A stretch of 64,000 bases of DNA from Deltaproteobacteria bacterium (GCA_050263095.1 JBLNEW010000068.1:14570-78569), one strand, 5' to 3'; numbered from the stretch's first letter, positions 36,947 through 58,489 are shown. Notes: generated by a model from the sequence alone, not told the origin. Numbers and translations are program-made.

Positions 36947-36949
36947 CCT

Positions 36950-38161
36950 CTATCCGCCGACGACGCCTGCCAGCTTGAAGATCGGCAGGTACATCGCGAT
37001 GACCAGGCCGCCGATCACCACGCCCAGGAATATCATCAGCATCGGCTCGAGGAGGGCGGTCAAGGCGTCCACGGCCGCATCGACCTCCTCGTCATAGAAA
37101 TCGGCTATCTTGTTGAGCATCGTGTCGAGCGCCCCCGTCGCCTCCCCGACCGCCACCATCTGGGTCACCATCACGGGGAACACCTTGGCTTCGGCGATCG
37201 GGTCCGCGATCGTCTTCCCTTCGCTTATGCTCATCCGGGCCTTGACGATGGCTTCCTCGATGATCTTGTTCCCCGCCGACTTGGCGACAATGTCCATGCT
37301 TTCCAGGATTGGCACGCCGCTGCTCACCATCGTGCCCAGCGTGCGCGAGAAACGGGCCACCGCGATTCTCTGGAGCAGGCTCCCGACGATCGGCAGCTTG
37401 AGGAGGAGGGCGTCTATGTTCCTGCGCCCGCTCTCCAAGGACCGGTACCAGCGCAACGCGAAGACCAGCCCCCCGATGGCGACCAGCACTAGCAGGAAAT
37501 ATTTCCTGGTGAAGGCGGAGAGCCCGAGGACGAACTGGGTGGGCACGGGAAGGGCCTGCCCGAAGTCCTCGAACATCTTCCCGAATATCGGGATGACGTA
37601 CAAGAGCAGGACCACGGTTACGATGATGGCGACCGCGACGATGGTCGAAGGGTAGACCATCGCGCCCTTTATCTTCTTGGCCAGCTTCATCGCCTTTTCG
37701 ATGTGCGCGGCGAGGCGGGACAGGATCGTGTCCAGGATGCCTCCGACCTCGCCGGCGGCGACCAGGTTCACGAACAGCTCGTCGAACACCTTCGGATGCT
37801 TCGACAGGGCGTCGGCGAAGGTCGAGCCGCTCTCCACGTCCTCCTTCACCTTCATGATGACGGTCTTGAACGCCTGGTTCTCCTGCTGCATGCCGAGTAT
37901 GTCCAGGCACTGGACAAGGGGAAGGCCGGCGTCGATCATGGTGGCGAACTGGCGCGTGAAGATCGCCAGCTCCTTCTGGCTTATTTTTCCCCTGAACCCG
38001 GGGAGCTTGAATCCCAGATCCTTCGACTTCGGCTTGACCTTGACGGGAACGATCTGCTGCCTGCGCAGCTGCGCCAGCACGAAGGCCTCGTTGGGCGCCT
38101 CCAGCTCCCCCGAAAGGTTTCCGCCCGCCCTGGTCTTGCCTTCCCAGACGAATTTCGGCAT
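36950..38161 (-). CDS. pilC: type IV pilus assembly platform protein PilC (GspF family)
   Basis: 403 aa. Two T2SSF repeats and three TM segments. Confidence 0.85.
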   Translation of the reverse strand: MPKFVWEGKTRAGGNLSGELEAPNEAFVLAQLRRQQIVPVKVKPKSKDLGFKLPGFRGKISQKELAIFTRQFATMIDAGLPLVQCLDILGMQQENQAFKTVIMKVKEDVESGSTFADALSKHPKVFDELFVNLVAAGEVGGILDTILSRLAAHIEKAMKLAKKIKGAMVYPSTIVAVAIIVTVVLLLYVIPIFGKMFEDFGQALPVPTQFVLGLSAFTRKYFLLVLVAIGGLVFALRWYRSLESGRRNIDALLLKLPIVGSLLQRIAVARFSRTLGTMVSSGVPILESMDIVAKSAGNKIIEEAIVKARMSISEGKTIADPIAEAKVFPVMVTQMVAVGEATGALDTMLNKIADFYDEEVDAAVDALTALLEPMLMIFLGVVIGGLVIAMYLPIFKLAGVVGG

Positions 38162-38182
38162 CGTTTCCTCCGCGCCTGCCCT

Positions 38183-39280
38183 CTAGGCTCTTCTTCCCGC
38201 GCCCTGCGGCGCGTTGTGCGCCGCCGAGAGCAGGTTCCTGAACTCTTCGGGGTCGGTGCTCCTCCCCACGGCGTCATCCAGCGTGATCTCCCTGCGAAGA
38301 TATGCGGCGAGCAGCGACTGGTTCATGGTCTGCATTCCGAACTTGGTCTGCCCCACCTGCATCTGCGAGTAGATCTGGTGGACCTTCTCCTCCCTGATCA
38401 GGTTCCGGATCGCCGGGTTCGGGACCATCACTTCCAGGCAGAGCACCCTGCCCAGCCCCGAAGCCTTGGGCAGGAGGATCTGCGAGACGACGCCCTCAAG
38501 GACGAACGACATCTGGGCCCTCACCTGCGGCTGCTGGTACGGGGGGAACACGTCGAGGATCCGGTTGATGGTCTGTACGCACGAGTTCGTGTGGAGCGTG
38601 GCGAACACCAGGTGGCCGGTCTCCGCGACGGTCAGCGCCGCCTCGACCGTCTCCAGGTCCCGCATCTCGCCGATGAGCACGACGTCGGGATCCTGCCGGA
38701 GGATGTGCTTCAGAGCCTTCTTGAAGCTCTGCGTGTCGGCGTTCACCTCCCGCTGGTTGATGACGCACTTCTTGTGCGGGTGCAGGTACTCGATCGGGTC
38801 CTCGATCGTGACTATGTGCTCCTGTCGCTCCGAGTTGATCTTGTCGATCATCGCGGCGAGGGTCGTCGATTTCCCCGATCCCGTCGGCCCCGTCACGAGG
38901 ACCAGCCCCCTTGGCTTCTTGCAGAGGTCTTTCAGCACGGACGGCAACCCCAGCTCGTCGAAGGTCCGGACCCGGAAGGGAATGGTCCGGAACGCGCCCG
39001 CCACCGCCCCCCGCTGCATGTATATGTTGGCGCGGAAGCGACTCAATCCCTTCACGCCGAAGGAGAGGTCCAGCTCCCATTCCTCTTCGAACCGCTGCTT
39101 CTGCGCCTCGGTCAGGATGCTGTAGCACAGGCGTTTCGTGTCAGGCGGGGCCAGCGGCTCCGCAGGCAGCGGAACCAGCCGCCCGTCCACGCGAATCGTG
39201 GGGGCGATGCCCGTTGTGATGTGAAGGTCGGAGGCGCCTTTCTCGTACATGACGCTCAGCATCTCGTGCATCGAAATCAT
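38183..39280 (-). CDS. pilT: type IV pilus twitching-motility retraction ATPase PilT
   Basis: 365 aa. Walker A GPTGSGKSTT, Asp box, His box (ATLHTN), PilT-specific AIRNLIRE motif. Confidence 0.9.
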   Translation of the reverse strand: MISMHEMLSVMYEKGASDLHITTGIAPTIRVDGRLVPLPAEPLAPPDTKRLCYSILTEAQKQRFEEEWELDLSFGVKGLSRFRANIYMQRGAVAGAFRTIPFRVRTFDELGLPSVLKDLCKKPRGLVLVTGPTGSGKSTTLAAMIDKINSERQEHIVTIEDPIEYLHPHKKCVINQREVNADTQSFKKALKHILRQDPDVVLIGEMRDLETVEAALTVAETGHLVFATLHTNSCVQTINRILDVFPPYQQPQVRAQMSFVLEGVVSQILLPKASGLGRVLCLEVMVPNPAIRNLIREEKVHQIYSQMQVGQTKFGMQTMNQSLLAAYLRREITLDDAVGRSTDPEEFRNLLSAAHNAPQGAGRRA

Positions 39281-39307
39281 AGGCGTCTTCTCCTTGGTCT
39301 TCCCCGC

Positions 39308-41005
39308 TTAATCGGGTGCGGTCACGCGGAGCACTTCCTCCAGCGTGGTGACCCCTTCCTCGATCTTGGACAGCCCCGACTGCCGGAGCGTCTTCATCCC
39401 GAGCCGGATCGCCTCCCGCTTGACTTCCAGCGCGGATCCGCCCCGCAGGATCAGGTCCTTCAAGTCCTCCTTTACGGGCATGACCTCGTAAAGCGCGACG
39501 CGCCCGCGGAACCCGGTGCCGTTGCAGTCGTCGCACCCCTTGCCGCGGGACGGACGCGCGAACTTGAGCCGTTCGGGCTTCATGCCCGCGTCCAGCAGCG
39601 CCTTCGGCGGTATCTTCAACTCTTCCTTGCAGTTCTGGCAGATCCTGCGGGCCAGCCGCTGCGCCAGGATCAGGTTAAGCGACGAGGATACGAGGAAAGG
39701 CTCGATGCCCATGTTCAACAGGCGGGTCACGGTGCTCGGCGCGTCGTTGGTGTGGAGCGTCGAAAGGACGAGGTGCCCGGTGAGGGCCGCCTTCACGCCG
39801 ATTTCCGCCGTCTCGTAGTCGCGTATCTCCCCCACCATTATTATGTCGGGGTCCTGGCGCAGGAAGGAGCGCAGCGCCGCCGCGAACGTCAGCCCGATCT
39901 CCTCCTTTATCTGCACCTGGTTTATCCCGGCGAAGTTGTACTCCACCGGGTCTTCCGCGGTCGAGATGTTGTCCGTCGTTTTGTTCAGGTCGGCGAGCGC
40001 CGAGTAGAGGGTCGTGGTCTTGCCCGAACCGGTCGGGCCGGTCACCAGGATCATCCCGAAGGGGCGGTGGATGGCCTCCTGGAAATCCTTGAGCGACTCG
40101 ACCTCGAACCCCAGCTTTGTCATGTCGAGCTGCAGGCTCGCCTTGTCCAGGAGGCGCAGGACTATCTTCTCGCCGTAGATGGTGGGAAGGACCGAGACGC
40201 GGAAGTCCATCTCCCTGCCCTTCCCGACCTTGAGCTTGATCCTGCCGTCCTGCGGGAGCCTCCGTTCCGCGATGTCGAGGCTCGACATGATCTTCAGCCG
40301 GGACGACAGGGCGTTGCGCAGCTTCAGCGGCGGTCGCATGACCTCGTAGAGCACGCCGTCCACGCGGTAGCGGACGCGGAATTCCTTCTCGTACGGCTCG
40401 ATGTGGATGTCCGAGGCGCGGCGTTTTATGGCGTCGGTGAGCACGAAGTTGGCGAGCTTGACCACCGGGGCGTCGTCGACCCTGCTCTCCTGGTCGGTGG
40501 CCTCGAAATCCTCTTCACGCACGACCTCCAGGTCTTCGTCCAGCTCGGAGATGATGTCCTTGAAATCCATCGACTGGTCGAAGTACTTGTTTATGGCCGT
40601 GGTTATGTCCTTCTCCGAGGCAAGCACCAGCTCCACCGCATAGCCGGTCTTGAACCCGATGGCGTCGATGATCGCCATGTTCGACGGATCGGCGACCGCC
40701 ACGATCAGCTTCGCTCCGACGCGGTTGATGGGAAGCGCGAGGTTCTTCTGGACCATCTCCTCGGGCAGAAGGCGGACGACTTCGGCGTTTATCTCGTACT
40801 TGGACAGGTCGACGACGGGGACGTTGAACTGGCGCCCGAGAAAAGCCAGGAGCTCCTGCTCCTTGATGAAGCCGGACTTGACCAGGACCGACCCGATCCG
40901 CTCCTTGGTCTTTTTCTGTGTATCCAGGGCGCTTCTTAGCTGCTCCGGGCTGATGATGTTTCCCTTGAGGAGCATCTCGCCGATTTTGGTTGCCATCACG
41001 GACAT
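39308..41005 (-). CDS. pilB: type IV pilus assembly ATPase PilB (GspE family)
   Basis: 565 aa. N-terminal GSPII_E_N domain, Walker A GPTGSGKTTT, tetracysteine zinc motif (CQNC...CDDC). Confidence 0.9.
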   Translation of the reverse strand: MSVMATKIGEMLLKGNIISPEQLRSALDTQKKTKERIGSVLVKSGFIKEQELLAFLGRQFNVPVVDLSKYEINAEVVRLLPEEMVQKNLALPINRVGAKLIVAVADPSNMAIIDAIGFKTGYAVELVLASEKDITTAINKYFDQSMDFKDIISELDEDLEVVREEDFEATDQESRVDDAPVVKLANFVLTDAIKRRASDIHIEPYEKEFRVRYRVDGVLYEVMRPPLKLRNALSSRLKIMSSLDIAERRLPQDGRIKLKVGKGREMDFRVSVLPTIYGEKIVLRLLDKASLQLDMTKLGFEVESLKDFQEAIHRPFGMILVTGPTGSGKTTTLYSALADLNKTTDNISTAEDPVEYNFAGINQVQIKEEIGLTFAAALRSFLRQDPDIIMVGEIRDYETAEIGVKAALTGHLVLSTLHTNDAPSTVTRLLNMGIEPFLVSSSLNLILAQRLARRICQNCKEELKIPPKALLDAGMKPERLKFARPSRGKGCDDCNGTGFRGRVALYEVMPVKEDLKDLILRGGSALEVKREAIRLGMKTLRQSGLSKIEEGVTTLEEVLRVTAPD

Positions 41006-41053: not shown

Positions 41054-41935
41054 TTAATTATCATACTGCAACTGTTTTCTGGCAAACGAAATAAAATTTT
41101 CCGCGGGGACTCTTTTGCCCGTCCACAGGAAGAAGCTCCTGGCCGCCTGGTGCGCCAGCATCCCGAGGCCGTCGACGGCCCTTATCCCCCTCTTTTTCAA
41201 CCGGCGGACGAGCAGGGTTCCTCCTTTCCGGTAAACTATATCGGCAAAACAGGAGGATTTCGTTATATCCGCAATGGGAAAATTTTTCCACTCCCCCGAC
41301 AGGCCAAGGGAGGTGCACTGCACTATCAGGTCGGTTCCGGGGAATTCCTTCTTCATTCCCGAGGGGTTAAGCTCTCCCGCCGAGATCTTCGCCCCTGGGA
41401 ACCGCGGGGAGAGAACGCGGGCGATTTCCTCTGCGCGCGACGGGTGGCGGTTCAGGATGGCCAGGCTGCGGGTGCCGTTGCGGCAAAGCTCATATGCGAT
41501 CCCCCTGGCAGAGCCTCCGGCCCCGAGGATAACGGCCCGCGGGAAGCTGCGCCCCCATCCCTCCCCATTCAGGGCGTTCAGGAAGCCCCGCCCGTCGGTG
41601 TTGTCGGCGACAAGCCGTCCGTCCCTGGCGACTATGACGTTCGCGGCGCCGCATGCCGAAACCGATTCCGACCTCTCGTCGGCCAGGGCCGCGGCCTCTT
41701 CCTTGAACGGGATCGTCACGTTCCCCCCGAGGAAGTTCCCCGAGCGGACCACCCGGAAAAAATCCGCAAGCGAACCGGGCTGAAGATCGACGCCGATATA
41801 TTTCACGGGAAGGCCCAGCCGGGCGATGACGCCGTTGTGCATCGCAGGACTTAGCGAATGCGACAGGGGGTGCCCGACGATGAACAGGAGTGAATCGAGG
41901 AAGCCCCGCCTTCCGTCTTTGCGCGGCCGGGTCAC
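41054..41935 (-). CDS. aroE: shikimate dehydrogenase
   Basis: I start at GTG compl. 41933-41935, forming a GTGA overlap with the HNH gene stop. IVGHPLSHSLSPAMHN substrate motif and GAGGSARGIAYEL Rossmann motif. The track ORF has about 97 extra N-terminal residues overlapping the HNH gene. Confidence 0.8.
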   Translation of the reverse strand: MTRPRKDGRRGFLDSLLFIVGHPLSHSLSPAMHNGVIARLGLPVKYIGVDLQPGSLADFFRVVRSGNFLGGNVTIPFKEEAAALADERSESVSACGAANVIVARDGRLVADNTDGRGFLNALNGEGWGRSFPRAVILGAGGSARGIAYELCRNGTRSLAILNRHPSRAEEIARVLSPRFPGAKISAGELNPSGMKKEFPGTDLIVQCTSLGLSGEWKNFPIADITKSSCFADIVYRKGGTLLVRRLKKRGIRAVDGLGMLAHQAARSFFLWTGKRVPAENFISFARKQLQYDN

Positions 41936-42528
41936 CTTTCGAGTTCTAGGTTCCAGTAAGTGAAGTCTACGACGTTCAGGAACGGCAGCCATTCCCTGTG
42001 GACCGGCGCCCTGAGGGAGAAGGCGTATTCGGGCGTCCACCTGGGGCGCGCCGGGCGAACGATCGTGCGCATCCCTACTTCCTCGGGCAGCATCCCGCCC
42101 TTGCGCTTGTTGCAGGGGAGGCAGCTGCAGACTATGTTCTCCCACGTGGCGTTCCCCCCCCGCGACCTGGGGATCACGTGGTCCAGGTTCAGATCGCTGC
42201 GGGGGTGGGTCTTCCCGCAGTACTGACACGTGTTCCGGTCCCTGACGAATATGTTGTGACGGCTGAAGCGCACCGTGCGCTTCGGGACCCTGTCGTAGGC
42301 GACGAGCACGACCACCCTCGGGATCCGGATCATTCTACCGACGAGCCCGACCGACTCGTCGCTTGTTCCGATGGACAGCTCGCTCCACGACTGGAAATCG
42401 AACATCTCGTAGCTTGAGTTGATGGCCCTGGCCAGGCCGGAGTACAGGAGGCAGAACGCGCGGCGCACATTCGTGACGTGCACGGGGAAAAACGCCCGGT
42501 TGAGGACAAGCACTCCGGAATTCAGCAT
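41932..42528 (-). CDS. HNH endonuclease family protein
   Basis: 198 aa. CQYCGK...DHVIPRSRGGNATWENIVCSCLPCNKRK is an HNH zinc-finger nuclease motif. Translationally coupled to aroE. Confidence 0.75.
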   Translation of the reverse strand: MLNSGVLVLNRAFFPVHVTNVRRAFCLLYSGLARAINSSYEMFDFQSWSELSIGTSDESVGLVGRMIRIPRVVVLVAYDRVPKRTVRFSRHNIFVRDRNTCQYCGKTHPRSDLNLDHVIPRSRGGNATWENIVCSCLPCNKRKGGMLPEEVGMRTIVRPARPRWTPEYAFSLRAPVHREWLPFLNVVDFTYWNLELER

Positions 42529-44029: not shown

Positions 44030-44713
44030 TCACCCCTTCGCCAGTTCCCGGAGAAGGACTTTCTTCCCGTATTGGGCGTTCTTGATGACGAGGGACTCCG
44101 CCAGGTCGGAATTCCGCTTCCGGAACGCGTCGATGATCTCCCTGTGCTGGCGGATGGAGCCTTCTATCTTGCCGCGCATCGCGAGAATGAGCCGGAAGCG
44201 CTGGAACTGCATCACCATGTTCTGGACGATCCCGTGGAGCTTCTCGTTGCCGCACGCCTTGAGGAAGACGTCGTGGAACTCATTGTGAAGAAGGAGCACC
44301 TTGCGCAGGTCCTTCTTGACGGAGGCGGTCTCCATCTGGCGGTTCACGGTCTCCATCTTGACCAGCTCCTTCTCCGTCAGCACCTTGGTGGCGCACCTCG
44401 CCGCGTATCCCTCGAGCACCATCTTGAGATCGTAAAAGTCCGAGATGTCCTTGGCGGAAAGCGAGGCTACGATGGCCCCCTTCCGCGGGATGACGGTGAT
44501 GAACCCTTCCGACTCCAGCTGGCGGAACGCCTCGCGGATCGGCGTCCTGCTGATGCCGAAGCGGTCGGCCAGCTCGGGCTCGGCCACCCGGGCGCCCGCC
44601 GGTATCTGCCCGTTCACGATGGCGTTTCGGACCGTTTCCACGATCTTTTCACGCAGGGTCATGTGATTGTCTATCTGGATCTTCAGTTTCTGCAGCAAAC
44701 GGATCCCCCCCAT
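44030..44713 (-). CDS. GntR family transcriptional regulator (FadR/FCD subfamily)
   Basis: 227 aa. N-terminal winged HTH (RVAEPELADRFGISRTPIREAFRQLESEG) plus FCD domain. Divergent from the isomerase gene across an AT-richer spacer. Confidence 0.85.
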   Translation of the reverse strand: MGGIRLLQKLKIQIDNHMTLREKIVETVRNAIVNGQIPAGARVAEPELADRFGISRTPIREAFRQLESEGFITVIPRKGAIVASLSAKDISDFYDLKMVLEGYAARCATKVLTEKELVKMETVNRQMETASVKKDLRKVLLLHNEFHDVFLKACGNEKLHGIVQNMVMQFQRFRLILAMRGKIEGSIRQHREIIDAFRKRNSDLAESLVIKNAQYGKKVLLRELAKG

Positions 44714-44820
44714 TTTATGGATTGCCGGATAATGTATGCAGTATACACCCGTATGTCAAGGTTTTTTCGGCGGCCGGCCCTTGCTCCGCCGTGCGCGATG
44801 GGGTATCGTTTCGCGAGGCC

Positions 44821-45612
44821 ATGGACTGGACTATCCACACGACTGTCCCTTTTCCGATGCTGGAGCTCCCGGAGACCGCCCGCCTCCTGTCCGAAAACGG
44901 CGTAGGGCCCGAGATATATCTTTCCGCAGGGACGCTCGACTCGATGAAGCCGGGAAGGGCGGAGGCCGCGGCGGAATCGCTGCGTTCGGTCGGGGTCGGA
45001 ACCGCCACCTTCCACGCCCCTTTCGAGGACCTCTGGCCCGGCGCCCGTGACGAGGAGGCGCGCCTCCTCGCCTTGCGCCGGCTGCGCCAGGCGATCGCCC
45101 TGGTCCCCGTATTCCGCCCGCGGGGGATCGTGGTCCACGGGGGGTATTACGGATGGATTTTCGACTTCGACTCCTCCAAGTGGCTCGAGCCCGCCAGACG
45201 GACCTTCGGGGAAGCGATGGAAACCGCCGAGAAGCATGGCGTAGACCTGTTCCTGGAAAACGTATTCGACGAGTCGCCGGAGCACCTGCTGCGCCTGAAG
45301 GAGGCGGTCGGATCGAACCGGCTGGGATTCTGCTGCGACGCGGGGCACGCTACCCTCTTTTCCGCCGTTCCGGTCCACAAGTGGGTGGAGGCGTTCGGGA
45401 AGGACCTGCGGGAGATGCACATCCACGACAACATGGGACTGCGGGACGACCACCTTCCCGTGGGTGAGGGGACGATCAATTTCCGGGGGGTCCTTCATGC
45501 CGCGCTTGACGCGGGGGCCGCTCCCATACTGACCCTGGAACCGCACCGCAGGGAGCATTTCCACCGGGGGCTGTCCGCGCTGCGGGCGCTCCTCATGGAC
45601 ATCCGCCGATAA
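44821..45612 (+). CDS. sugar phosphate isomerase/epimerase (xylose-isomerase-like TIM barrel)
   Basis: I start at ATG 44821 (MDWTIHTT...). AP-endonuclease-2/TIM-barrel signatures (HAPFEDL, GIVVHGG, FLENVFDE, HIHDN). Track TTG 44722 is the alternative. Confidence 0.7.
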   Translation: MDWTIHTTVPFPMLELPETARLLSENGVGPEIYLSAGTLDSMKPGRAEAAAESLRSVGVGTATFHAPFEDLWPGARDEEARLLALRRLRQAIALVPVFRPRGIVVHGGYYGWIFDFDSSKWLEPARRTFGEAMETAEKHGVDLFLENVFDESPEHLLRLKEAVGSNRLGFCCDAGHATLFSAVPVHKWVEAFGKDLREMHIHDNMGLRDDHLPVGEGTINFRGVLHAALDAGAAPILTLEPHRREHFHRGLSALRALLMDIRR

Positions 45613-45629
45613 GTCGGCCGGCGCAGCGC

Positions 45630-46925
45630 TTAGCGCAGGTCCTGCAGGGTCCGGTCGAGGAACGCGACCGCGTCCTCGCGTATATACCGCTCTCCAAGCG
45701 CCGTGAAAACCGGGGCTTCCCTGCGATCGCCGGAGAGTTCCCCGCGCAGCGACCGGAAAAACATACGCCCGACTATCGGGTCGTAATGCCGCCGCAGGCA
45801 TGACTTGATCTCCCCGAGCGCCGCGACCAGGGGAAGGCTGTCCCGGTAGGGGCGGTCGGACACCATGGCGTCGAACGCGTCGGCAAGGGCTATGATTCGC
45901 GCGCCCATGGAAATCTGGCGGTCCCGCTTTCCGTGCGGATATCCCGTGCCGTCCAGCCATTCGTGGTGATCCCTGGCCAGCTGCGCGACGTTCGGATATG
46001 GAAACTTTATCTCGGAGAGAATCTCGAAGCTTGTCTGCGGGTGCCTCTGTATCTCCCTGATCTCCCCCGCCGTCAAGGGGGACGGTTTCGTAAGGATGGA
46101 TCTGGCCGTCCCTATCTTCCCGACATCGTGAAGGATCGACGCGATGTGGATCGCCTCCACTTCCTTCTCGGGAAGATCCAGCCCCTTCGCGATCGAAACC
46201 GATATCCTCGCCACCCGCTCGGAATGCCCCCGCGTGTAGGGATCCTTGGCCTCGATGGCCGTCGCTAGCGCCCGGATGGTGTCGAGATAGATCTCCTGCA
46301 TCCCGGTTATGAGCCGCTCGTTTTCCTGGACCTGGAACCGAAGGACCTCGTTCAGGCGGAATATGTCGGACATCACGCGATGATTGGATATGTGAGCGGA
46401 CAGGAATGACGTCATGACTCCCAGGGTCTCCCTCTCCCCCAAGGTCAGGGGCTCCCCCGTGATCGTGGGGCCGAGGGCCAGAAGACCCAGCGGGCCGTTG
46501 CGGGTCCCGAGCGGGCACAGCACGTCCACGGAAAAGGCGGGCACCGCGTGCTCCATCCCCTCGGCGGCCTTCCTGATCGCGCCGGGGACCTCCCGCCGCC
46601 CCATCAACAACGGCCGCCCCGAACGACGGAGCGCGGCCGCCAGCTCCTTCGTCGCTTCGATCGGAGGCATTCCGGGCGGAAGGCCGCGGGAAACGCGCAC
46701 CCTGAATTCTCCGTCCTCCCGAAGCAGCAGCGCCCCCTTTACGATCGAGCAGGATCCCAGGATCACCATCAGCGACAGGTGCAGCGATTCGTCGAAATCG
46801 CGGGCCCGCGCGAGACACAGCGTGAAATCCCGGAGCGCCTTCAGCTTGAACGCCTCCCGCCTTCCCGCGGGAATCCGTTCCCCGCTTGCACGGGCGGACT
46901 CAGGACGACTGCGCGAAATAACCAA
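45630..46925 (-). CDS. GAF domain + HD-GYP domain protein (putative c-di-GMP phosphodiesterase)
   Basis: 431 aa. C-terminal HD-GYP signature (HDVGKIG ... HHEWLDGTGYPHG ... DAFDAMVSDRPYR). N-terminal GAF-like domain. Confidence 0.8.
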   Translation of the reverse strand: MVISRSRPESARASGERIPAGRREAFKLKALRDFTLCLARARDFDESLHLSLMVILGSCSIVKGALLLREDGEFRVRVSRGLPPGMPPIEATKELAAALRRSGRPLLMGRREVPGAIRKAAEGMEHAVPAFSVDVLCPLGTRNGPLGLLALGPTITGEPLTLGERETLGVMTSFLSAHISNHRVMSDIFRLNEVLRFQVQENERLITGMQEIYLDTIRALATAIEAKDPYTRGHSERVARISVSIAKGLDLPEKEVEAIHIASILHDVGKIGTARSILTKPSPLTAGEIREIQRHPQTSFEILSEIKFPYPNVAQLARDHHEWLDGTGYPHGKRDRQISMGARIIALADAFDAMVSDRPYRDSLPLVAALGEIKSCLRRHYDPIVGRMFFRSLRGELSGDRREAPVFTALGERYIREDAVAFLDRTLQDLR

Positions 46926-47253
46926 GGGCTTCCTCCTCGAGATCGAACGACTGGACGTAACGGGCGACTCCCGTCATCTGGAACAGCTCGCGGTTGATAC
47001 GGCTCAAGGAGCAGAACGCGAGCATCCCGCTGCGCTCCATGATCTTTTCGACGATGTCGATGATTATCGAAATCCCTATGCTGTTGATCAGGCGCGTCCC
47101 CTCGAAATTGAGCAACACCTTCCTGCGGCCCGCGTCAAGGGCTTCCTGCACGACCCGCTCCACCTCCTCGCCCATGAGGCTGTTGAGGTATCCGTCGATG
47201 TACACCACCAGGACGTCGTTCGCCTGGCGCGTCCGAACCGTCAGGTAACTCAC
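46900..47253 (-). CDS. STAS-domain anti-sigma-factor antagonist (SpoIIAA/RsbV-like)
   Basis: 117 aa. STAS fold with a conserved phosphorylatable Ser region (LINSIGISIIID). Confidence 0.8.
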   Translation of the reverse strand: MSYLTVRTRQANDVLVVYIDGYLNSLMGEEVERVVQEALDAGRRKVLLNFEGTRLINSIGISIIIDIVEKIMERSGMLAFCSLSRINRELFQMTGVARYVQSFDLEEEALGYFAQSS

Positions 47254-47260
47254 TTTGGCA

Positions 47261-49555
47261 TCACCCGGGACCCTGGGATCCCTCCCCTTCCTTTCCGGAT
47301 TCGCGGCCGAGGTATTTGACCATCCGCACTACGGTTCCACGGTCGCCCGTCGCTATGTCCACTTCGTCCACGAGCTCGCGTATAAGCTTGAGCCCCCAAC
47401 CCCGGTTGCGCTTCGACTCCCCCCCCGCTCTCCCGCCGCGGAAGCCCTTTCCTTCGTCCTGGACGAAAAGCTCGATCTTCTCCGGGGACAGGACGTACCG
47501 GAGCCTTACCTTGCCCGACTCCGCCCCGCTGTGCTCGAAGGCGTTGATGCACGCCTCTATGAGCGCCATCTTGAGCCGGTCGACCGTGTCCTTGTCCAGC
47601 GAGGCGTAGGCCGCCACCTCCTCCGCGACGCGTGCCGCGACGACCTCCGTGTCCGCCTTCATCGGGAGCACCAGCTCGAACTCCAGCGGTTCCGCCCCTT
47701 GCGGGGATTCGGAGCCCTTGCGCTCTTCCGGCGCCGTCTCGAGCTCTTCCATGCCGAACAGGTTCAGGAACAGGCGCATCTGTGAACGGTGCGTCAGAAG
47801 GATGTCGTGCTGGGCCGCTCTTTCCATGGCGGCCGCGTCCGCCGTCCCTTCGAACAGGATCCACTTCCGCAGCTGGCCGTGAGAAAGTCCCTTCTCGAGG
47901 CTCAAGATCCTGCACCGGTTCTCGAAGTGCTCCACCGCGTTGGCGGTCAGCGACTTCTCCGTCATCACGTCCACCGCCCAGATAACCAGGTTCTCCTCGG
48001 AAAACTCGGCTTCCAGGAATCCGTAGGCCACCAGGTCGAAATCGAACCGCGGACCGCCGCGCCTGGTCCGGTATCCCGTGGACACGGAGCTGATCTTCGG
48101 CAGCCGCATCTTCTGCGGATCCTTCTCCAGCCCGATCACGACCTCCAGAAGCCCCTTCCCGCCGAACTTCTCCCGGAAACCGTCGAATCGGAACAGCAGC
48201 AAGGGCACGTCGCGGCAGTCCCACCTCCGCATAAGCTCCTTCGTCACGGAGATCCACTTCTCCCGGCTGCCCTCCATCTGCCCCGCGAAGGAGTGCGAAA
48301 GCTTCCCCTGCACCAGCGACGCAGCCACCTGGGAGCCGCTCTTCCCCAGAACGCCCCGCTCGAAAGCCCAGAAAAGGAAATCGGCCAGCACCGGATCCCC
48401 GACGAACCGCAGCTGCTCGAAGTCGGACTTCAGCAGGCCCTTGAACTCAAGGGCCGACAGGATCTCCCCTCCGTCCTCCGCGGATGTCCCGAGGAGCGAC
48501 AGCGCCCCTTCGAACGTGTCCAGCGGGAACTGGTCGCACACGACGCGCTTCAGGAACTTGATCGCGCGGGCGCGCGCCATCCTGTCGGGGAACGCGCTCT
48601 CGAAGAATTCCCGCCAGTAACGGTTTAGCTGCCCCTCGGTTATCGAAAGTGCGAACAGGTTCTCGAACCCGATCTCGTCCTCCACCTGCACGCTGCGAAA
48701 GGAAACCTCCTCGGCGAACATCCGCTGGTAGATCGGTATGTGGCCGAGCCTCGCGGCCGCGCGCGCCTGTATGTGGACGGGCATCCGTATGTTCCTGCGC
48801 GCGAAAAGGGAGGACCACATCCTCTCGGAGGCCGCGGGCGAGATCCCGCCCACTTCCATCAGCTGGAACGAACCGAACAATCCTTCCCGCTTCAGGGAAG
48901 ATGTCACGTGCCCCGGGGAGGAACCCGATATCACCATCGGGAAATGCCCGGACTTTATATACGGGCGCAGGATCGAAAGTATGGCGCCGTCGGGAATGCT
49001 CTGGAGTTTGCATGTATACTGGAAGTCGTCGAAGAGGAAAACGGGATAGAATACCTCCCCCCCCCACACGAACGGGAAGGAAAATGCGTTCACCAGCGCC
49101 GAGAGTCCGTCGCCGCGCTCCGTGAAACGCCGGTGGGCGACGATGAATTCGCGATAGTCGACGAGTCCGTAGGTTCCGAGCCGGTCGCACAACGCGTCAG
49201 TGTCGAACGCCGCAGGCGGCGAGTCCCCGAGGAAGACCAGAAGCTGCCAAAGGTATTCCTGCAGGAAATGCTGCGAGAGGGCCAGCGGATGGGAAAGGAT
49301 CTTGCTGAACGAGAAGTAGAACGGAAAGGGGCGCGGCGGGGCCGCGCCTTCGGAGAGGGTCTGCAGATCGTATTTCAGCTTGAGGAGAATGGAGGTCTTT
49401 CCGACGTTGGGCGGCCCGTATATCATCACCGAGGCGCCGATGCCGGACTTCCCCTCGAGGCACACGCGCGTCAGTGCCGCCAGCTCCTCCTCGCGGCCGA
49501 AGAATTCCTCCGCCCGGAACGAGAACCCTGCGCCCTGGTTCCAGATCAGACGCAA
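47261..49555 (-). CDS. multidomain protein: N-terminal P-loop ATPase (AAA/ORC-like) + long middle region + C-terminal RsbW/SpoIIAB-type GHKL serine kinase domain
   Basis: 764 aa. Walker A GPPNVGKTS, Walker B VFLFDD. C-terminal about 130 aa (LIEACINAFEHSG...GWGLKLIRELVDEVDI) matches anti-sigma regulatory-factor kinases. Directly upstream of the STAS gene. Confidence 0.65.
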   Translation of the reverse strand: MRLIWNQGAGFSFRAEEFFGREEELAALTRVCLEGKSGIGASVMIYGPPNVGKTSILLKLKYDLQTLSEGAAPPRPFPFYFSFSKILSHPLALSQHFLQEYLWQLLVFLGDSPPAAFDTDALCDRLGTYGLVDYREFIVAHRRFTERGDGLSALVNAFSFPFVWGGEVFYPVFLFDDFQYTCKLQSIPDGAILSILRPYIKSGHFPMVISGSSPGHVTSSLKREGLFGSFQLMEVGGISPAASERMWSSLFARRNIRMPVHIQARAAARLGHIPIYQRMFAEEVSFRSVQVEDEIGFENLFALSITEGQLNRYWREFFESAFPDRMARARAIKFLKRVVCDQFPLDTFEGALSLLGTSAEDGGEILSALEFKGLLKSDFEQLRFVGDPVLADFLFWAFERGVLGKSGSQVAASLVQGKLSHSFAGQMEGSREKWISVTKELMRRWDCRDVPLLLFRFDGFREKFGGKGLLEVVIGLEKDPQKMRLPKISSVSTGYRTRRGGPRFDFDLVAYGFLEAEFSEENLVIWAVDVMTEKSLTANAVEHFENRCRILSLEKGLSHGQLRKWILFEGTADAAAMERAAQHDILLTHRSQMRLFLNLFGMEELETAPEERKGSESPQGAEPLEFELVLPMKADTEVVAARVAEEVAAYASLDKDTVDRLKMALIEACINAFEHSGAESGKVRLRYVLSPEKIELFVQDEGKGFRGGRAGGESKRNRGWGLKLIRELVDEVDIATGDRGTVVRMVKYLGRESGKEGEGSQGPG

Positions 49556-49645
49556 TGCGTTGCGGCTCCAGTCGCGCTCATTATCCCGTTAATTTAACTT
49601 GAAACCATTGATTTTTCAAAAATTAATTGGGAATGTAGAAAAATC
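49556..49645. promoter_or_regulatory. AT-rich divergent intergenic region (probable promoters for the ATPase-kinase operon and the radical SAM gene)
   Basis: ttaatttaacttgaaaccattgatttttcaaaaattaattgggaatgtagaaaaatc: about 90 nt AT-rich between divergent genes. Confidence 0.3.
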
Positions 49646-53731: not shown

Positions 53732-53806
53732 GCCGACGTAGCTCAACGGTAGAGCAGCTGATTCGTAATCAGCAGGTTGCCAGTTCAATCCTGGCCGTCG
53801 GCTCCA
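53732..53806 (+). tRNA. tRNA-Thr (anticodon CGT)
   Basis: Manual cloverleaf. Acceptor GCCGACG/CGTCGGC 7 bp, U8, D-arm GCTC/GAGC, anticodon stem GCTGA/TCAGC with loop TTCGTAA (CGU), T-arm GCCAG-TTCAATC-CTGGC, discriminator T, encoded CCA. Confidence 0.85.
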
Positions 53807-53810
53807 CCAC

Positions 53811-54329
53811 TTACAGGAAAATCACATACTTGCAAGTTGCCGAATCGCGCAGGATCATTCGGGAACGGACGAAATGTAAGGGATTAAGTGCACATTTTAG
53901 ACACATCTTGACGTACTCTAGAGATTTCCCGTTCCCGATGAGCCAGGTTGCGTAGGTGTGCCGAAGGTCGTGAAAGCGAATTTGCCGGAGGCCCGCTTTC
54001 CGCAAGCACGCTGCGAACATATGCCGAACGTTCGCCCCATCCTGCGCCGTCACTTCCACCGATTCCTCCTCATCTTCGGGGAGCCGATATATCTTCGCAG
54101 GGAATACCCACTCGGGCATGGACCGCCCTGCCTTCAACGCTTCCGCAGCCACAGCTCGCCGATGCTCAGTAAGGATAGCCGCCAGCAGGTCGGACAGGTC
54201 CACACGCCGCGCTTTCCCTGACTTCGGCGTGCTGATATGCCCTTCCCAGTTTGCACGCCGCACTTCGATGTATTTCCCATTCCAGTCAATATCGCCCCAT
54301 TGTAAGGCGATCAGTTCTCCCTGCCGCAT
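53811..54329 (-). pseudogene. tyrosine integrase (phage/P4-like), C-terminal catalytic fragment, decayed at both ends
   Basis: Box I GMRQGELIALQWGDID and box II HDLRHTYATWLI are present. The reading frame then diverges into non-integrase sequence before the catalytic Tyr region. Upstream it is joined by a frameshift to ORF 54286..54633. It is 4 nt from the tRNA 3' end. Confidence 0.7.
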
Positions 54330-54689
54330 CCCTTGTTCCGTCAGCCAATCTATACGGGATTTCTACCCCGTCTATCCGATCTTTCAAGCCCAACGATTCC
54401 AAAAACTCAACCGGGATCCGCTTTATTTCAGCTAGTGCCGAGACTGTGACTGATCCACTCGACACAATGCCCGCAATGCGTTTTTGCTCATTTAACGCCG
54501 CGAAAACCGCTTCCGGCGGGCACCCGGCATGACAATGTAAAACGACATCAACCTTTTCACCTGGGTTGACGCTAAGGGAAGGATTGCTGTCCGCATGCGC
54601 GGGCAGCAAGCTGTGAAACCTTGGCCGTTCCATTTAACCCCCTCTAAAAGGTCGGCAATTTCTTGTAATCGTGGGTTGTTGATTTTCAT
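54286..54689 (-). pseudogene. remnant of phage/plasmid primase zinc-binding (CHC2-type) domain, frameshifted and fused to the integrase fragment
   Basis: Two overlapping frames together read ...KWNGQGFTACCP / AHADSNPSLSVNPGEKVDVVLHCHAGCPPEAVFAAL, the CHC2 primase zinc-finger pattern (CPFH-D--PSLSV---G---HCFGCG). Continues into integrase-like sequence with another frameshift. Confidence 0.45.
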
Positions 54690-54931
54690 CGGGTCTCTCT
54701 TCCTCCAGCATCAACTCCGCGGAATATAGCGACCACATCATCGACACATATCGGCTCTTCGCGGTACTGCGCCAACCAGCGATCCACATCTTCGGTCCGG
54801 AAAAGGATGCCGCTACCTGGAGGATGTATGTGCGGAACATATGGCAATAGATGTCGTCGTGCCCAACGTGCGAAACGCCCGCCGCAATACATTCCAGCCT
54901 GTGCCAATGTCAAATACACCGTTATAGACAT
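54686..54931 (-). CDS. AlpA/excisionase-family small HTH protein (possibly degenerate)
   Basis: ITVYLTLAQAGMYCGGRFARWARRHLLPYV...ILFRTEDVDRWLAQ matches the phage AlpA/Xis DNA-binding pattern (l-eaA-yLgvs--tlyRwv--G-fP ... f--edvdaWl). About 80 aa. Confidence 0.4.
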   Translation of the reverse strand: MSITVYLTLAQAGMYCGGRFARWARRHLLPYVPHIHPPGSGILFRTEDVDRWLAQYREEPICVDDVVAIFRGVDAGGRETR

Positions 54932-55041
54932 GCCCATAAGCTCCTTTATAGGGGGCTATCTCGAAAACTATTACTGTTGTAAGGCTGAATGAAAAACTTG
55001 GGTCCAGGCTATATGGACGGAAAAAGAGGACGATATAGCGG

Positions 55042-55689
55042 TTAATACCGCCTATTTTTTAGTCGCCTTCTCCTTTCGGCGACGTAACTGGCGTCGTACT
55101 CTTTCTCCGGATACATCGCACGTAGTAGGGACGCGACTATCTCATCACAAGGGCGGCCGAACCGGTTCTCAAGCCTGTGAGATAACCGTTTAATGAACAT
55201 ATCTGGTGCAGGAGGTTTCCGTCCGGGCTTGCCTTTTTCCTTTGCCCATTGTTCATAAATGTAGATACAGTACCCCACTTCTTCGGCGTCTGGGTTTAAT
55301 AGCGGAACGTCTTCACGCCTTATTAAGCGAATCGCTGCAGCCAAATCGCTGAAGTATTTATTGGGATATCGTTTCCCCGCGATGATTTTGATGTCCGCGC
55401 ACATTCCTATTATGTCTGCAAAATCCTTAAGGTCATTATCGCAACCATCGGCGCATGCAACAAGATATTCTCTTAGGGCAACCGTTGCGAAATCATCAAT
55501 TAGATGGGTATCTACGCCTTCTTTGACAGGTTTCGGTTTGAGGATCTGTAGCGCTTCTCGAAGTTTCTCGGGATTGTCGCGAATCGATGTTTGGAGATGC
55601 CTCTTGACGGCCGTTTCCCAGTTTGCTGGAATTTTTATCGCGGAAAGATTCTTTCGCTTTGGCATGATTCCACCTCCCGGGACCCTCAT
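55042..55689 (-). CDS. hypothetical protein (island-borne, no recognisable domain; not a recombinase)
   Basis: 215-aa ORF in AT-richer DNA, divergent from the cassette array. No R..HxxR..Y tyrosine-recombinase motifs. Confidence 0.45.
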   Translation of the reverse strand: MRVPGGGIMPKRKNLSAIKIPANWETAVKRHLQTSIRDNPEKLREALQILKPKPVKEGVDTHLIDDFATVALREYLVACADGCDNDLKDFADIIGMCADIKIIAGKRYPNKYFSDLAAAIRLIRREDVPLLNPDAEEVGYCIYIYEQWAKEKGKPGRKPPAPDMFIKRLSHRLENRFGRPCDEIVASLLRAMYPEKEYDASYVAERRRRLKNRRY

Positions 55690-56014
55690 TATTACCCGAA
55701 TCGGTGTCTACGAAACCAGGGGAACTCCAGTAGATCTAGCGCACGTGCGGGAAAATTTATTTGAGTACATTCAATTTCCTCGATATGATTCGCACATTAA
55801 TGAGAGATCGTTTGCCATTCCTATTCGGCTACACCTTCGATATTTTCTCAACTGCCGATTGAGCGCCCCCGCATTCCTCAGCATCCGGGGGATCAAGGAG
55901 CCGGGCTTGAGCAGGATGTTCAGGCTACGTTATCCAGGGCATGGCTGCAGGACATGCACCCTAATCCTATCCTTGAATATGTGCTTTATGATTTTTATAG
56001 GCGAGAAATTTACA

Positions 56015-56032
56015 GTCTAAACCGCGTTAGGC
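56015..56032 (+). repeat. minimal attC/attI-like site GTCTAAAC-CGC-GTTAGGC upstream of the first cassette
   Basis: Inverse-core-like GTCTAA(A)C and GTTRRRY core GTTAGGC are separated by 3 nt and lie 36 nt 5' of the first cassette ORF. May mark the insertion point or a collapsed attC. Confidence 0.25.
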
Positions 56033-56068
56033 GAACGATGGAATTATATATAAAAAGGAGAACAAAAT

Positions 56069-56419
56069 ATGGTTAGGGAGATATCAAAATATAAGCCATC
56101 TTTTTCAACGTGCCCATTATGTAATAGCACTATGTCGAGTAAAGAAATACGAGGGCATGTTGTTCGGTGCCAAAAGACGAAACATATTGGTATTGGCGTT
56201 AAGCAATTATCAAAAAATACCGTATTGATTACAAAAAATATACTGTGTAAAGAATGTGGATTAGTCAAGGCCGCCACTTATGATATGAACAATAAAAGAC
56301 CGCCTAAAATTTGTAATGCATGTAAGAAAAATCCTCCTATTAAGTCGAACGATAAATTCGACCCATTAGACCGTTCTATCAGTGGTGGGGCATTTGAAAT
56401 GAATCGAAGGAGACATTAA
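56069..56419 (+). CDS. cassette ORF 1: small Cys-rich (double zinc-ribbon-like) protein, unknown function
   Basis: 116 aa. CPLC...HVVRC and CKEC...CNAC pairs. AAAAGGAG RBS. Followed 8 nt later by attC-like R1. Confidence 0.55.
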   Translation: MVREISKYKPSFSTCPLCNSTMSSKEIRGHVVRCQKTKHIGIGVKQLSKNTVLITKNILCKECGLVKAATYDMNNKRPPKICNACKKNPPIKSNDKFDPLDRSISGGAFEMNRRRH

Positions 56420-56427
56420 TTTACGTC

Positions 56428-56493
56428 GCCTAACCACCGTTTGCAGATGACGGCTTGCAGCTTTCTCGCTGAGCGCAAAGAACTGAAGCGGAG
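56428..56493 (+). repeat. attC-like site R1 (left half intact: GCCTAAC-CA-CCGTTTGCAG ... CTGAAGCGGAG; right core lost)
   Basis: RYYYAAC inverse core GCCTAAC. L''-like CCGTTTGCAG faces L'-like CTGAAGCGG with one extra G. Shares the central consensus GACGGCTyGC...CTTTCTCGCTGAGyGC with R2 and R3. Confidence 0.5.
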
Positions 56494-56526
56494 ATGGGCA
56501 GTAATAATAACAAGGGGAGATCACAA

Positions 56527-56862
56527 ATGGGAGCTGTGGAAAACATAAAAGAAATTGCCGACCTAATAAAGAAGATCGGCGATGCTGATTTGTATCGAAA
56601 GATAGTAGAGTTGGAACATGAAGTATTTGAACTTTCATGCCAAAACCTATTAAGTCTGAGTAAGATCGAAGAGTTAAAAGAAATTTTGCGTGTCAAACAG
56701 AACATCAAATACGATGGCCAAGTATACTATCTTGAGGGAGATTCCGTTCCCTATTGCCCAAAATGCTGGGAAGTTACTAGAGCACTGGTTCACCTAACAG
56801 AATCCGCGAGCCCAAGTTTTGGTCACTGTCCGAATTGTGAAAATTCATTCAGAGTTAGGTAG
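56527..56862 (+). CDS. cassette ORF 2: small coiled-coil protein with C-terminal zinc ribbon, unknown function
   Basis: 111 aa from ATG 56527 (AAGGGGAGA RBS 6 nt upstream). CPKC...CPNC at the C-terminus. Track start 56494 lies inside R1. Confidence 0.55.
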   Translation: MGAVENIKEIADLIKKIGDADLYRKIVELEHEVFELSCQNLLSLSKIEELKEILRVKQNIKYDGQVYYLEGDSVPYCPKCWEVTRALVHLTESASPSFGHCPNCENSFRVR

Positions 56863-56902
56863 ATCTTGGGTTGCTATATTCCAAATTTCTAGGAGATAGC
56901 AC

Positions 56903-57343
56903 ATGAATTTCAATCATATATGTCTCTATACCGATGGTGGTAGCAAAGGCAATCCAGGACCCGGCTCGATTGCCTTAATAATCTGTAACTCAAACAACGA
57001 AATATTACAGGAATATTCGGAATGCATTGGCCACTGCACCAATAACCAAGCAGAGTATAAAGCATTAATAAAAGGCCTCGACTTATCAGCAAGGTATACC
57101 CGGCGGAAGGTAACCTGTTACTCCGACAGCGAACTATTGATAAAACAAATGAATGGACAGTACAGATTAAAAAATGCTGCACTCAGAAAGTTGTTTCACC
57201 AAGTCCAGGACCTAGTTCGGATGTATGACGAGGTAGTATACCAACATGTACTCAGAGGAAATCAGCGAATAACGCGGGCTGACCAGCTTGTAAAGCAGGC
57301 CCATGCGGGGAGACATATTGATAAGGTGCATGTCATACCGTGA
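56903..57343 (+). CDS. cassette ORF 3: RNase HI-like (type 1 ribonuclease H fold) protein
   Basis: 146 aa. YTDGGSKGNPGPGSIA (Asp1), NNQAEYKALIKGL (Glu), CYSDSELLI (Asp2), C-terminal RADQL (Asp3). Aligns by eye to the E. coli RnhA catalytic residues; lacks the basic protrusion. Confidence 0.75.
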   Translation: MNFNHICLYTDGGSKGNPGPGSIALIICNSNNEILQEYSECIGHCTNNQAEYKALIKGLDLSARYTRRKVTCYSDSELLIKQMNGQYRLKNAALRKLFHQVQDLVRMYDEVVYQHVLRGNQRITRADQLVKQAHAGRHIDKVHVIP

Positions 57344-57347
57344 CGCC

Positions 57348-57421
57348 AGCTAACCACTGCTTGGCACTGACGGCTCGCGTCTTTCTCGCTGAGTGCCCGC
57401 AGCTGAAGCGGAGCGTTAGAC
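57348..57421 (+). repeat. attC-like site R2 (AGCTAAC ... CTGAAGCGGAGC-GTTAGAC), 74 bp
   Basis: Starts 5 nt after the ORF 3 stop and ends 24 nt before the ORF 4 start. Ends in GTTAGAC (GTTRRRY). The left end is its imperfect reverse complement. Internal L''/L' pairing with an extra G. Confidence 0.55.
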
Positions 57422-57445
57422 CGACTGAAAAATGGGAGGAGGGAA

Positions 57446-57718
57446 TTGAAACACTCACTGAGAAACTTATTCGTTTTCCTGTCCATTATGGGTTTAATCG
57501 TTTCCGCATGTGCTCATCAGCCAACTCCAGCCGCATATGATCCCCCAGGATTCTTCTCTGGTCTATGGCATGGATTTATTATTTTATTCAGTCTCATTGG
57601 AAGCATTTTTTCCGACATTAGAATCTACGCATTTCCAAATTCAGGTGGGTGGTACGACTTTGGTTTCTGCATAGGGGTAACTGCATTTTTTGGTGGAGGA
57701 GCAAGTGCTGCAACATGA
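57446..57718 (+). CDS. cassette ORF 4: small lipoprotein / membrane protein
   Basis: 90 aa from TTG (GGAGGAGGG RBS just upstream). MKHSLRNLFVFLSIMGLIVSAC has a lipobox-like signal peptide, then two hydrophobic helices and a Gly-rich tail. Confidence 0.5.
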   Translation: MKHSLRNLFVFLSIMGLIVSACAHQPTPAAYDPPGFFSGLWHGFIILFSLIGSIFSDIRIYAFPNSGGWYDFGFCIGVTAFFGGGASAAT

Positions 57719-57753
57719 GTGGAAAAACAAACAAGGGACATTTTGTTTACGCG

Positions 57754-57826: not shown

Positions 57827-57841
57827 CGCGGAGGAGAAATA

Positions 57842-58480: not shown

Positions 58481-58489
58481 ATTAAGACG

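Follow-up and report, generated by a model that had tools for sequence, protein, structure and literature searches.

What does a partner switch control if no sigma factor is encoded next to it? The question is raised by three consecutive minus-strand genes in a 64,000-nucleotide (nt) stretch of DNA from a Deltaproteobacteria bacterium (GCA_050263095.1, JBLNEW010000068.1:14570-78569; the window, meaning this whole stretch). They encode a 764-amino-acid (aa) protein that joins an ATPase part to a C-terminal RsbW-type kinase domain, a 117-aa STAS protein, and a 431-aa GAF-HD-GYP protein, a predicted phosphodiesterase of cyclic di-GMP (c-di-GMP). The window has a G+C content (GC) of ~64%, and those of its homologues that carry a name belong to uncultured Candidatus Deferrimicrobiaceae (metagenome bins labelled 'Deltaproteobacteria bacterium'). 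Partner switches classically control alternative sigma factors, and a few are known that act on c-di-GMP cyclases instead. A preliminary description of the locus, made from the sequence alone, had suggested that the kinase/STAS pair gates c-di-GMP hydrolysis. Since 36 of the 42 complete loci outside the Deferrimicrobiaceae keep a PocR-GAF-GGDEF cyclase, the ATPase-kinase, the STAS protein and a GAF-HD-GYP protein in this order, the pair is tied to c-di-GMP turnover far more strongly than that description could see. The system is best called a partner switch coupled to c-di-GMP enzymes, whose sigma factor and PP2C phosphatase parts are missing, at least locally. Its new features are the ATPase-fused kinase, the HD-GYP partner and, in most lineages, the presence of cyclase and phosphodiesterase in one cassette.

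Linkage of the kinase and STAS genes to c-di-GMP enzymes

Hosts and neighbourhoods were counted in the best 80 loci of at least 580 confirmed places of the fusion in species-representative genomes (one genome per species). Genes were called by phmmer and hmmsearch on the open reading frames (ORFs) of the fetched loci, and a locus was taken as complete if both flanks were present. Distant relatives of the 764-aa protein (~20-28% identity) sit in neighbourhoods unrelated to that of the window; in one of them (357 bits, ~23% identity) genes for PocR-GAF-GGDEF, ATPase-kinase, STAS and (GAF)-HD-GYP proteins are consecutive. Besides the 36 complete loci with all four genes, there are three with only cyclase and kinase, two without the cyclase and one without the STAS gene. 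Of 52 loci outside the Deferrimicrobiaceae, 49 have the cyclase gene upstream of the kinase gene, which the majority of the cyclase genes abut or overlap. All ten upstream proteins scanned with Pfam are PocR-GAF-GGDEF proteins, and the GGEEF motif and the RxxD I-site are present in each of the 38 cassette cyclases. The genes that follow the cassette vary by lineage (recJ, hrcA, a methyltransferase, a histidine kinase and others). Because its neighbours are not the same from lineage to lineage, the cassette moves as a unit. No sigma factor was found in the cassettes of the relatives. The order of kinase, STAS and GAF-HD-GYP genes is thus kept across phyla, usually with a cyclase first, which links the pair to c-di-GMP enzymes and not to an adjacent sigma factor, as the preliminary description had supposed.

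The genes recJ, hrcA and the methyltransferase were dropped as cassette members, because they are not conserved downstream. A Methyltransf_11 gene follows the kinase gene in some Pyrinomonadaceae (L043, 9459-11223; L059, 10306-14723; L063, 4431-5270). In two of these loci polysaccharide-type genes stand between the kinase and the STAS/HD-GYP genes, namely a GT2 glycosyltransferase (L043) and an NAD-dependent epimerase (L059), which hints at a link with exopolysaccharide synthesis.

The ATPase-kinase fusion is undescribed, not rare. A search of 1.84 billion representative proteins with a family profile yielded 215 clusters at E<=1e-30, mostly of 700-780 aa and matching end to end, and the full-length architecture is kept in 127 close relatives. 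Among the best 80 loci, the hosts are mainly Acidobacteriota (Blastocatellia, Pyrinomonadaceae, Chloracidobacterium), Thermodesulfobacteriota and Deferrimicrobiaceae, with single loci in Rokubacteriota and Sumerlaeota and a small number of bins with odd labels. Few members of these groups are in culture, and hardly any of their signalling has been studied by experiment. A short form of ~550 aa does not contain the middle alpha/beta domain; in one locus (L088, 245-2578) a STAS gene comes next and, after it, a gene fragment with a start that looks GAF-HD-GYP-like by eye only, and phmmer with the HD-GYP protein of the window found no match in this fragment. Existing annotation calls members of the family 'ATP-binding protein' or 'RsbW'. 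NCBIfam holds no model for the fusion, no curated family model was found, and we found no paper in the literature that describes either the fusion or the cassette. The earlier remark that such a fusion is not commonly described therefore holds for papers and models, but not for its occurrence in genomes. Defining this large and widespread family, which is without a curated model, would improve annotation widely.

Throughout the region between RNase G and pilB the Deferrimicrobiaceae loci are collinear, at identities of 98% to 48%, and synteny within this family was for this reason discounted as independent evidence. A cyclase gene is present in none of the 21 Deferrimicrobiaceae-type species loci, and the profile of the cassette cyclase found no copy in the whole 64-kb window. 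The window locus is a cut-down form of the four-gene cassette, in a lineage that lost the cyclase. By tblastn, the HD-GYP gene is at the locus in only five Deferrimicrobiaceae-type species; the trio of kinase, STAS and HD-GYP genes also occurs in other metagenome contigs of the group, with an HD-GYP identity of 59-60%. The phosphodiesterase gene shows a presence/absence polymorphism within one family, in which kinase and STAS are the stable core and the phosphodiesterase is dispensable at the locus.

The three proteins and their probable operon

In the 764-aa protein, Pfam places AAA_16 at residues 17-179 (E 5e-8; 34.1 bits, cut-off 32.6) and HATPase_c_2 at residues 639-747 (E 2e-22); ATPase_2 scores 23.2 bits against a cut-off of 33.2. 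In 17 homologues of 47-81% identity there is no variation in Walker A (GPPNVGKT) and Walker B (FLFDD), nor in the N box (EACINAFEH), G1 (DEGKGF) and G2 (RGWGL) of the kinase domain. All three boxes align with RsbW (PDB 6m36; sequence E 1e-8, 26-28% identity), the segments EACINAFEH/VQDEGKGF/RGWGL pairing residue for residue with EACTNAVQH/VADEGDSF/GGLGL. According to Foldseek the last 125 residues fold like RsbW (target-normalised template modelling (TM) score 0.83-0.89) and SpoIIAB, and the NCBIfam models for these two proteins give 31-51 bits at cut-offs of 135-155. The C-terminal part has the features of an RsbW-type GHKL kinase by sequence and by fold. The Pfam domains, the intact Walker motifs and the RsbW alignment bear out the fusion of ATPase and kinase that had been proposed, and judged by its motifs the protein of the window looks like a competent ATPase and kinase.

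The AlphaFold model of this protein is of moderate quality (predicted local distance difference test (pLDDT) 73, predicted TM score (pTM) 0.54). Its elements are, in order, P-loop core, helical lid, winged-helix-like hairpin, long helix, alpha/beta domain (~485-600), disordered linker and GHKL domain. For the first ~400 residues, the nearest folds are the archaeal Walker ATPases 2qen (E 3e-9) and 2fna (E 1e-8), with target-normalised TM scores of ~0.6, followed by Orc1/Cdc6 and then by the plant NLR and Apaf-1 NTPases; the alignments to the archaeal AAA+ proteins and Orc1/Cdc6 span 410-450 columns. In the model the N-terminal part thus has the fold features of an Orc1/Cdc6-like AAA+ ATPase (core, lid and winged helix). 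It shares these three elements over ~400 residues with PABY2304 (2qen), SSO1545 (2fna; both Pfam ATPase_2) and Orc1/Cdc6, at only 14-15% identity, whereas those proteins have no kinase domain and are either without assigned function or act in replication. Residues 430-622, including the middle domain, gave no Pfam match in eight family members, except for a weak match to NA-iREase3 (E 0.078) in one relative. That the middle domain may have a restriction-endonuclease-like (DUF234-type) fold is a guess.

The 117-aa protein matches Pfam STAS (E 3e-11), as expected from the preliminary description, and TIGR00377 (E 1e-13), with 50.7 bits slightly below the cut-off of 53.45. Asn57, Ser58 and Gly60 (Asn57-Ser58-Ile-Gly60 in the window) are invariant in 76 of 76 cassette-linked STAS proteins. 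Ser58 presumably corresponds to Ser58 of SpoIIAA (MDS58SG), the expected phospho-acceptor. The protein is a plain single-domain STAS protein and a predicted antagonist, in which helix 2 begins with the conserved Ser that could be phosphorylated. Kinase and STAS protein together resemble RsbW/RsbV and SpoIIAB/SpoIIAA of Bacillus in the GHKL kinase with N, G1 and G2 boxes, in the single-domain STAS protein with a Ser at the position of Ser58 and in the adjacency of their genes. Kinases of the RsbW/SpoIIAB type bind and inhibit a sigma factor, which the same operon usually encodes, and in a complete system a PP2C-type phosphatase (RsbU/RsbP/SpoIIE class) resets the STAS protein. The pair of the window differs from these systems in that no sigma factor or PP2C gene is present locally and the neighbours are c-di-GMP enzymes. 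Moreover, RsbW-type anti-sigma kinases are single-domain proteins of ~140-160 aa, whereas here the kinase domain makes up the last 125 of 764 residues.

For the 431-aa protein, Pfam gives HD_5 at residues 220-383 (E 4e-36). H234, H266-D267, H295, H320-H321-E322, G326-x-G328-Y329-P330 and D349 are invariant in 28 sequences, so that the HD-GYP motif set is complete, with all metal- and substrate-binding motifs. Unlike the other domains named in the preliminary description (HATPase_c_2, STAS and HD_5), the GAF domain was not recovered by Pfam at E<0.1 in the protein of the window, nor by NCBIfam. The AlphaFold model (pLDDT 86, GAF region above 85) has its best full-length fold match in PmGH (4mcw; E 2e-14, 385 columns, 24% identity), its N-terminal half matches isolated GAF domains at a TM score of ~0.7, and homologues at 37-41% identity carry Pfam GAF, GAF_2 or GAF_3. 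Due to these fold matches and the GAF domains of the homologues we assign a diverged GAF domain despite the silence of Pfam, and the protein has the GAF-HD-GYP architecture of a predicted c-di-GMP phosphodiesterase. It shares with PmGH the two-domain architecture and all metal- and substrate-binding motifs; it differs in a GAF domain too diverged for Pfam and in being embedded in a kinase/STAS operon. The GAF part of the cassette cyclase profile is also matched by the N-termini of related HD-GYP proteins. The structure 5z7c is among the fold matches of the model, and some HD-GYP proteins act on cyclic GMP-AMP (cGAMP) instead of c-di-GMP.

ORF prediction returned exactly the coordinates that had been given for all three genes (Table 1). 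Their G+C content at third codon positions (GC3) of 0.80-0.85 is typical for real genes in a genome of ~64% GC. Only 7 nt separate the stop codon of the kinase gene from the STAS start, and the STAS and HD-GYP genes overlap by 26 nt, an overlap that is also present in two homologous loci (L084 and L086); the TTG start of the HD-GYP gene is backed by the N-terminal alignment of homologues. Upstream of the kinase gene lies a 90-nt AT-rich gap, followed by a divergent radical-SAM/DUF2344 gene. This gap holds the only good promoter-like candidate for the cluster, a consensus match alone. Downstream, a convergent TIM-barrel gene (AP_endonuc_2) ends 17 nt past the HD-GYP stop codon. Since the genes are tightly packed, the sole promoter-like site lies upstream of them and the flanking genes are divergent and convergent, the three genes probably form a single transcription unit, in line with the co-transcription implied by the preliminary description. 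Pfam scans of the window used GC3-filtered ORFs of at least 90 aa. Among the predicted genes of its 18-64 kb part they found neither a sigma factor, as had been noted for the immediate neighbourhood, nor a PP2C phosphatase.

Possible modes of action

We tentatively favour the view that the four-gene cassette, which is widespread, controls c-di-GMP and that the three-gene operon is a reduced version of it. The 764-aa protein would be the signal input, in which the AAA+ module (Orc1/Cdc6-like and STAND-like), the winged helix and the alpha/beta domain would set the activity or the oligomeric state of the RsbW-type kinase domain. This domain would phosphorylate the STAS protein on Ser58, and the phosphorylation state would decide whether the STAS protein, or the kinase domain that is competed for, binds the GAF domain of the HD-GYP protein. 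In other lineages the PocR-GAF-GGDEF cyclase would come under the same control through its related GAF domain. The output would be the rate of c-di-GMP breakdown, plus that of synthesis where a cyclase is present, and not the release of a sigma factor. What is observed are the domain identities, the intact catalytic motifs of the three window proteins, the tight packing and the gene order across phyla; from these we infer the phosphotransfer, the contact between the GAF domain and the STAS protein or kinase, and which way information flows.

Each step of this scheme has a precedent. The cyclases HsbD, BgrR and SiaD are controlled by the phosphorylation state of STAS or STAS-like proteins, and HsbR/HsbA-HsbD of P. 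aeruginosa, BgrSTUWV-BgrR of S. meliloti and SiaABC-SiaD likewise encode a Ser/Thr kinase and a STAS(-like) protein together with a c-di-GMP enzyme (PMC8457831). As in these systems, a GGDEF cyclase is encoded beside the kinase in the relatives of the window cassette, the ancestral cassette comprising both cyclase and phosphodiesterase. However, the Hsb, Bgr and Sia systems act on cyclases and include a phosphatase, whereas in the window a GAF-HD-GYP phosphodiesterase is linked, the kinase is fused to an ATPase and no phosphatase is encoded locally. The analogy to HsbA drawn in the preliminary description is therefore reasonable, but its precedent covers cyclases and not HD-GYP enzymes. In the literature we found no partner switch reported to control an HD-GYP enzyme, and the HD-GYP survey of Galperin and Chou makes no mention of STAS or anti-sigma neighbours (bioRxiv 10.1101/2021.11.05.467447). 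Non-canonical STAS proteins that act on non-sigma targets include SypA and BtrV (PMC8256260). The absence of a dedicated phosphatase has a parallel in VapK-VapS-VapC, a three-gene operon in which phosphorylation of the STAS protein frees the enzyme (PMC13373217). With this operon the window shares the kinase-STAS-enzyme layout, and with CapK/CapS as well as VapK/VapS/VapC an RsbW-like kinase with N-terminal sensor domains, a STAS protein with an invariant Ser, a non-sigma target and the lack of a dedicated phosphatase (PMC13373217). The CapK/VapK sensor consists of HTH and STAS domains and binds single-stranded DNA, and the targets are a repressor or the VapC nuclease in immune loci (PMC13373217), whereas the window has an AAA+ ATPase, a presumed c-di-GMP enzyme target and a housekeeping setting. 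If our view is right, it extends the logic of the partner switch to an HD-GYP phosphodiesterase and to the paired control of synthesis and breakdown, and adds a new input device, an AAA+/STAND-like ATPase fused to the kinase. This would be an incremental step inside a known framework and not a new principle.

Several observations weigh against this view. Among the 19 informative Deferrimicrobiaceae species, 14 keep kinase and STAS genes without an HD-GYP gene at the locus (L006, L007, L009-L014, L016-L020 and L024); in these the convergent TIM-barrel (AP_endonuc_2) gene directly follows the STAS gene, with no HD-GYP remnant. The phosphodiesterase is therefore not the only partner of the pair, which must have another partner, or partners encoded elsewhere. 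The proposal that the pair gates c-di-GMP hydrolysis was for the same reason too narrow: the link to c-di-GMP stands by gene order, but most sister species have no HD-GYP gene at the locus and the ancestral cassette includes a cyclase. In three Acidobacteriota loci, cyclase and kinase are accompanied by neither STAS nor HD-GYP genes. Both c-di-GMP enzymes carry sensor domains of their own, and a PP2C phosphatase was found neither in the cassettes of the relatives nor in the 18-64 kb part of the window. Finally, the G1 Asp of the GHKL domain is changed to Asn or Ser in 57 of 58 distant relatives (loci L025-L083), with the change to Asn confirmed by alignment with RsbW, and the Walker A Lys is lost in ~35 of the 58, mostly from Acidobacteriota. 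Since these residues are replaced, the very cassettes that give the link to c-di-GMP may work differently from the canonical version of the window. The distant ATPase-kinases may in part be binding scaffolds or pseudo-enzymes, or may have an altered nucleotide use. Ser58 of the STAS protein stays invariant even where the G1 Asp or the Walker A Lys of the kinase is lost.

A more far-reaching version of the same idea is rather unlikely in our judgement. Here the four-gene cassette would be a self-contained c-di-GMP toggle, in which a nucleotide-switch ATPase drives the kinase/STAS switch, and cyclase and phosphodiesterase are turned in opposite directions via their related GAF domains; the window would hold its reduced, catalytically canonical form. 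Such a toggle would be the first partner switch shown to act on an HD-GYP enzyme and the first with an AAA+/STAND-type input.

As the main alternative, information could flow the other way, which we consider doubtful. Cyclase and phosphodiesterase, each equipped with its own sensor domains, would set a local c-di-GMP pool via PocR and GAF, the ATPase-kinase would be the c-di-GMP receptor, and the STAS protein would carry the output to an unlinked target. Local c-di-GMP signalling commonly uses cassettes that combine a cyclase, a phosphodiesterase and an effector, and c-di-GMP receptors are known among AAA+ and GHKL proteins, for example FleQ and CckA. The persistence of kinase and STAS proteins without adjacent enzymes in the 14 Deferrimicrobiaceae species is explained better by this reversed flow than by the control of the enzymes, as the pair could read the global pool. 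However, the 764-aa protein showed no known c-di-GMP-binding motif, although no systematic test for one was made, and the three loci with cyclase and kinase lack the STAS protein and so the proposed output. In addition, the published systems HsbA-HsbD, BgrV-BgrR and SiaC-SiaD all run from the STAS protein to the enzyme (PMC8457831).

It is improbable that the locus encodes a conventional switch, with the kinase domain as anti-sigma factor of an unlinked sigma factor, the STAS protein as its antagonist and the HD-GYP protein merely co-transcribed. Kinase and STAS domains are indeed closest to RsbW/RsbV and SpoIIAB/SpoIIAA, and the HD-GYP gene is dispensable at the locus in many sister species. 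But neither the predicted genes of the 18-64 kb part nor the cassettes of the relatives include a sigma factor, and known anti-sigma kinases have no N-terminal extension of 620 residues. The order with HD-GYP and GGDEF genes, which is kept across phyla while the flanks change, would be hard to explain without a functional link.

An anti-phage role, with the ATPase-kinase as STAND-type immune sensor and the HD-GYP protein as nucleotide-degrading effector, was rejected as very improbable after the negative PADLOC result: the fold resembles STAND/NLR NTPases, one relative has a weak match to a NACHT-associated inactive restriction endonuclease domain and RsbW-like kinase/STAS pairs regulate immune operons (PMC13373217), but PADLOC gave no match for kinase or STAS protein and only generic HD matches for the 431-aa protein, the partners are ordinary c-di-GMP enzymes including a GGEEF cyclase, and the RNase G-pilB order of this housekeeping setting, kept from 98% to 48% identity, argues for vertical inheritance and not for a defence island.

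Coordinates and surroundings of the module

Table 1 Features of the module in the window (positions counted from its first nucleotide)
Feature	Position	Strand	Basis
GAF-HD-GYP gene, 431 aa	45630..46925	-	TTG start
HD-GYP catalytic domain (predicted), aa 220-383	45777..46268	-	HD_5; invariant motifs
Diverged GAF domain (predicted), aa ~20-160	46446..46868	-	AlphaFold fold match to 4mcw and GAF domains; Pfam GAF in homologues
STAS gene, 117 aa, single domain	46900..47253	-	GTG start; Pfam STAS, TIGR00377
Ser58 codon AGC, predicted phospho-acceptor	47080..47082	-	Asn-Ser-x-Gly conservation
764-aa ATPase-kinase fusion gene	47261..49555	-	TTG start; homologues begin MRL
RsbW/SpoIIAB-type GHKL serine kinase domain, aa 624-748	47312..47686	-	HATPase_c_2; N, G1 and G2 boxes; sequence and fold match to 6m36
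Alpha/beta middle domain (unassigned family) and disordered linker, aa 430-622	47690..48268	-	pLDDT 45-83
Helical lid and winged-helix-like region, aa 240-400	48356..48838	-	AlphaFold secondary structure, pLDDT ~80-90; Foldseek
P-loop AAA+ core, aa 1-235	48851..49555	-	FxGRxxE, Walker A aa 47-54, Walker B aa 173-177; Pfam AAA_16/ATPase_2; fold of 2qen, 2fna and Orc1/Cdc6
Sigma-70-like promoter candidate, TTGAAA, 17 nt, TAAATT	49591..49619	-	Consensus match, 9/12 positions

A 711-aa ORF at 44683-46818 was rejected by its composition and GC3 as an Arg/Gly/Pro-rich shadow ORF over the HD-GYP gene and neighbouring genes.

A type IV pilus cluster (35270-41005) lies 5-10 kb from the module. It encodes a PAS histidine kinase (35270-36946), a PilC-like protein (36950-38161), a PilT-like protein (38183-39280) and a PilB-like ATPase with MshEN (39308-41005); in L001, L084 and L086 synteny with the module extends to the PilB- and PilT-like genes. 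The MshEN type of domain binds c-di-GMP in some proteins, and the MshEN-bearing PilB-like ATPase is a possible candidate for a downstream c-di-GMP effector.

Between selA and aroE, an ORF for an HNH endonuclease (41932-42528) is present in the window and most relatives. Its absence from L084 suggests a small mobile insertion. It is overlapped by the longest aroE ORF (41054-42229), and therefore the true aroE start is probably located further downstream.

On the other side of the module, a tRNA-Thr gene (53732-53806, plus strand) comes directly before an ORF for a truncated phage-type integrase (53811-54329, minus strand). The GC falls from ~64% to 43-51% across 54-60 kb of the window, and an ORF of 1462 aa at 59522-63910 is helicase-like (AAA_11/AAA_12). 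The part of the window from 53732 to 64000 is probably a genomic island inserted at tRNA-Thr.

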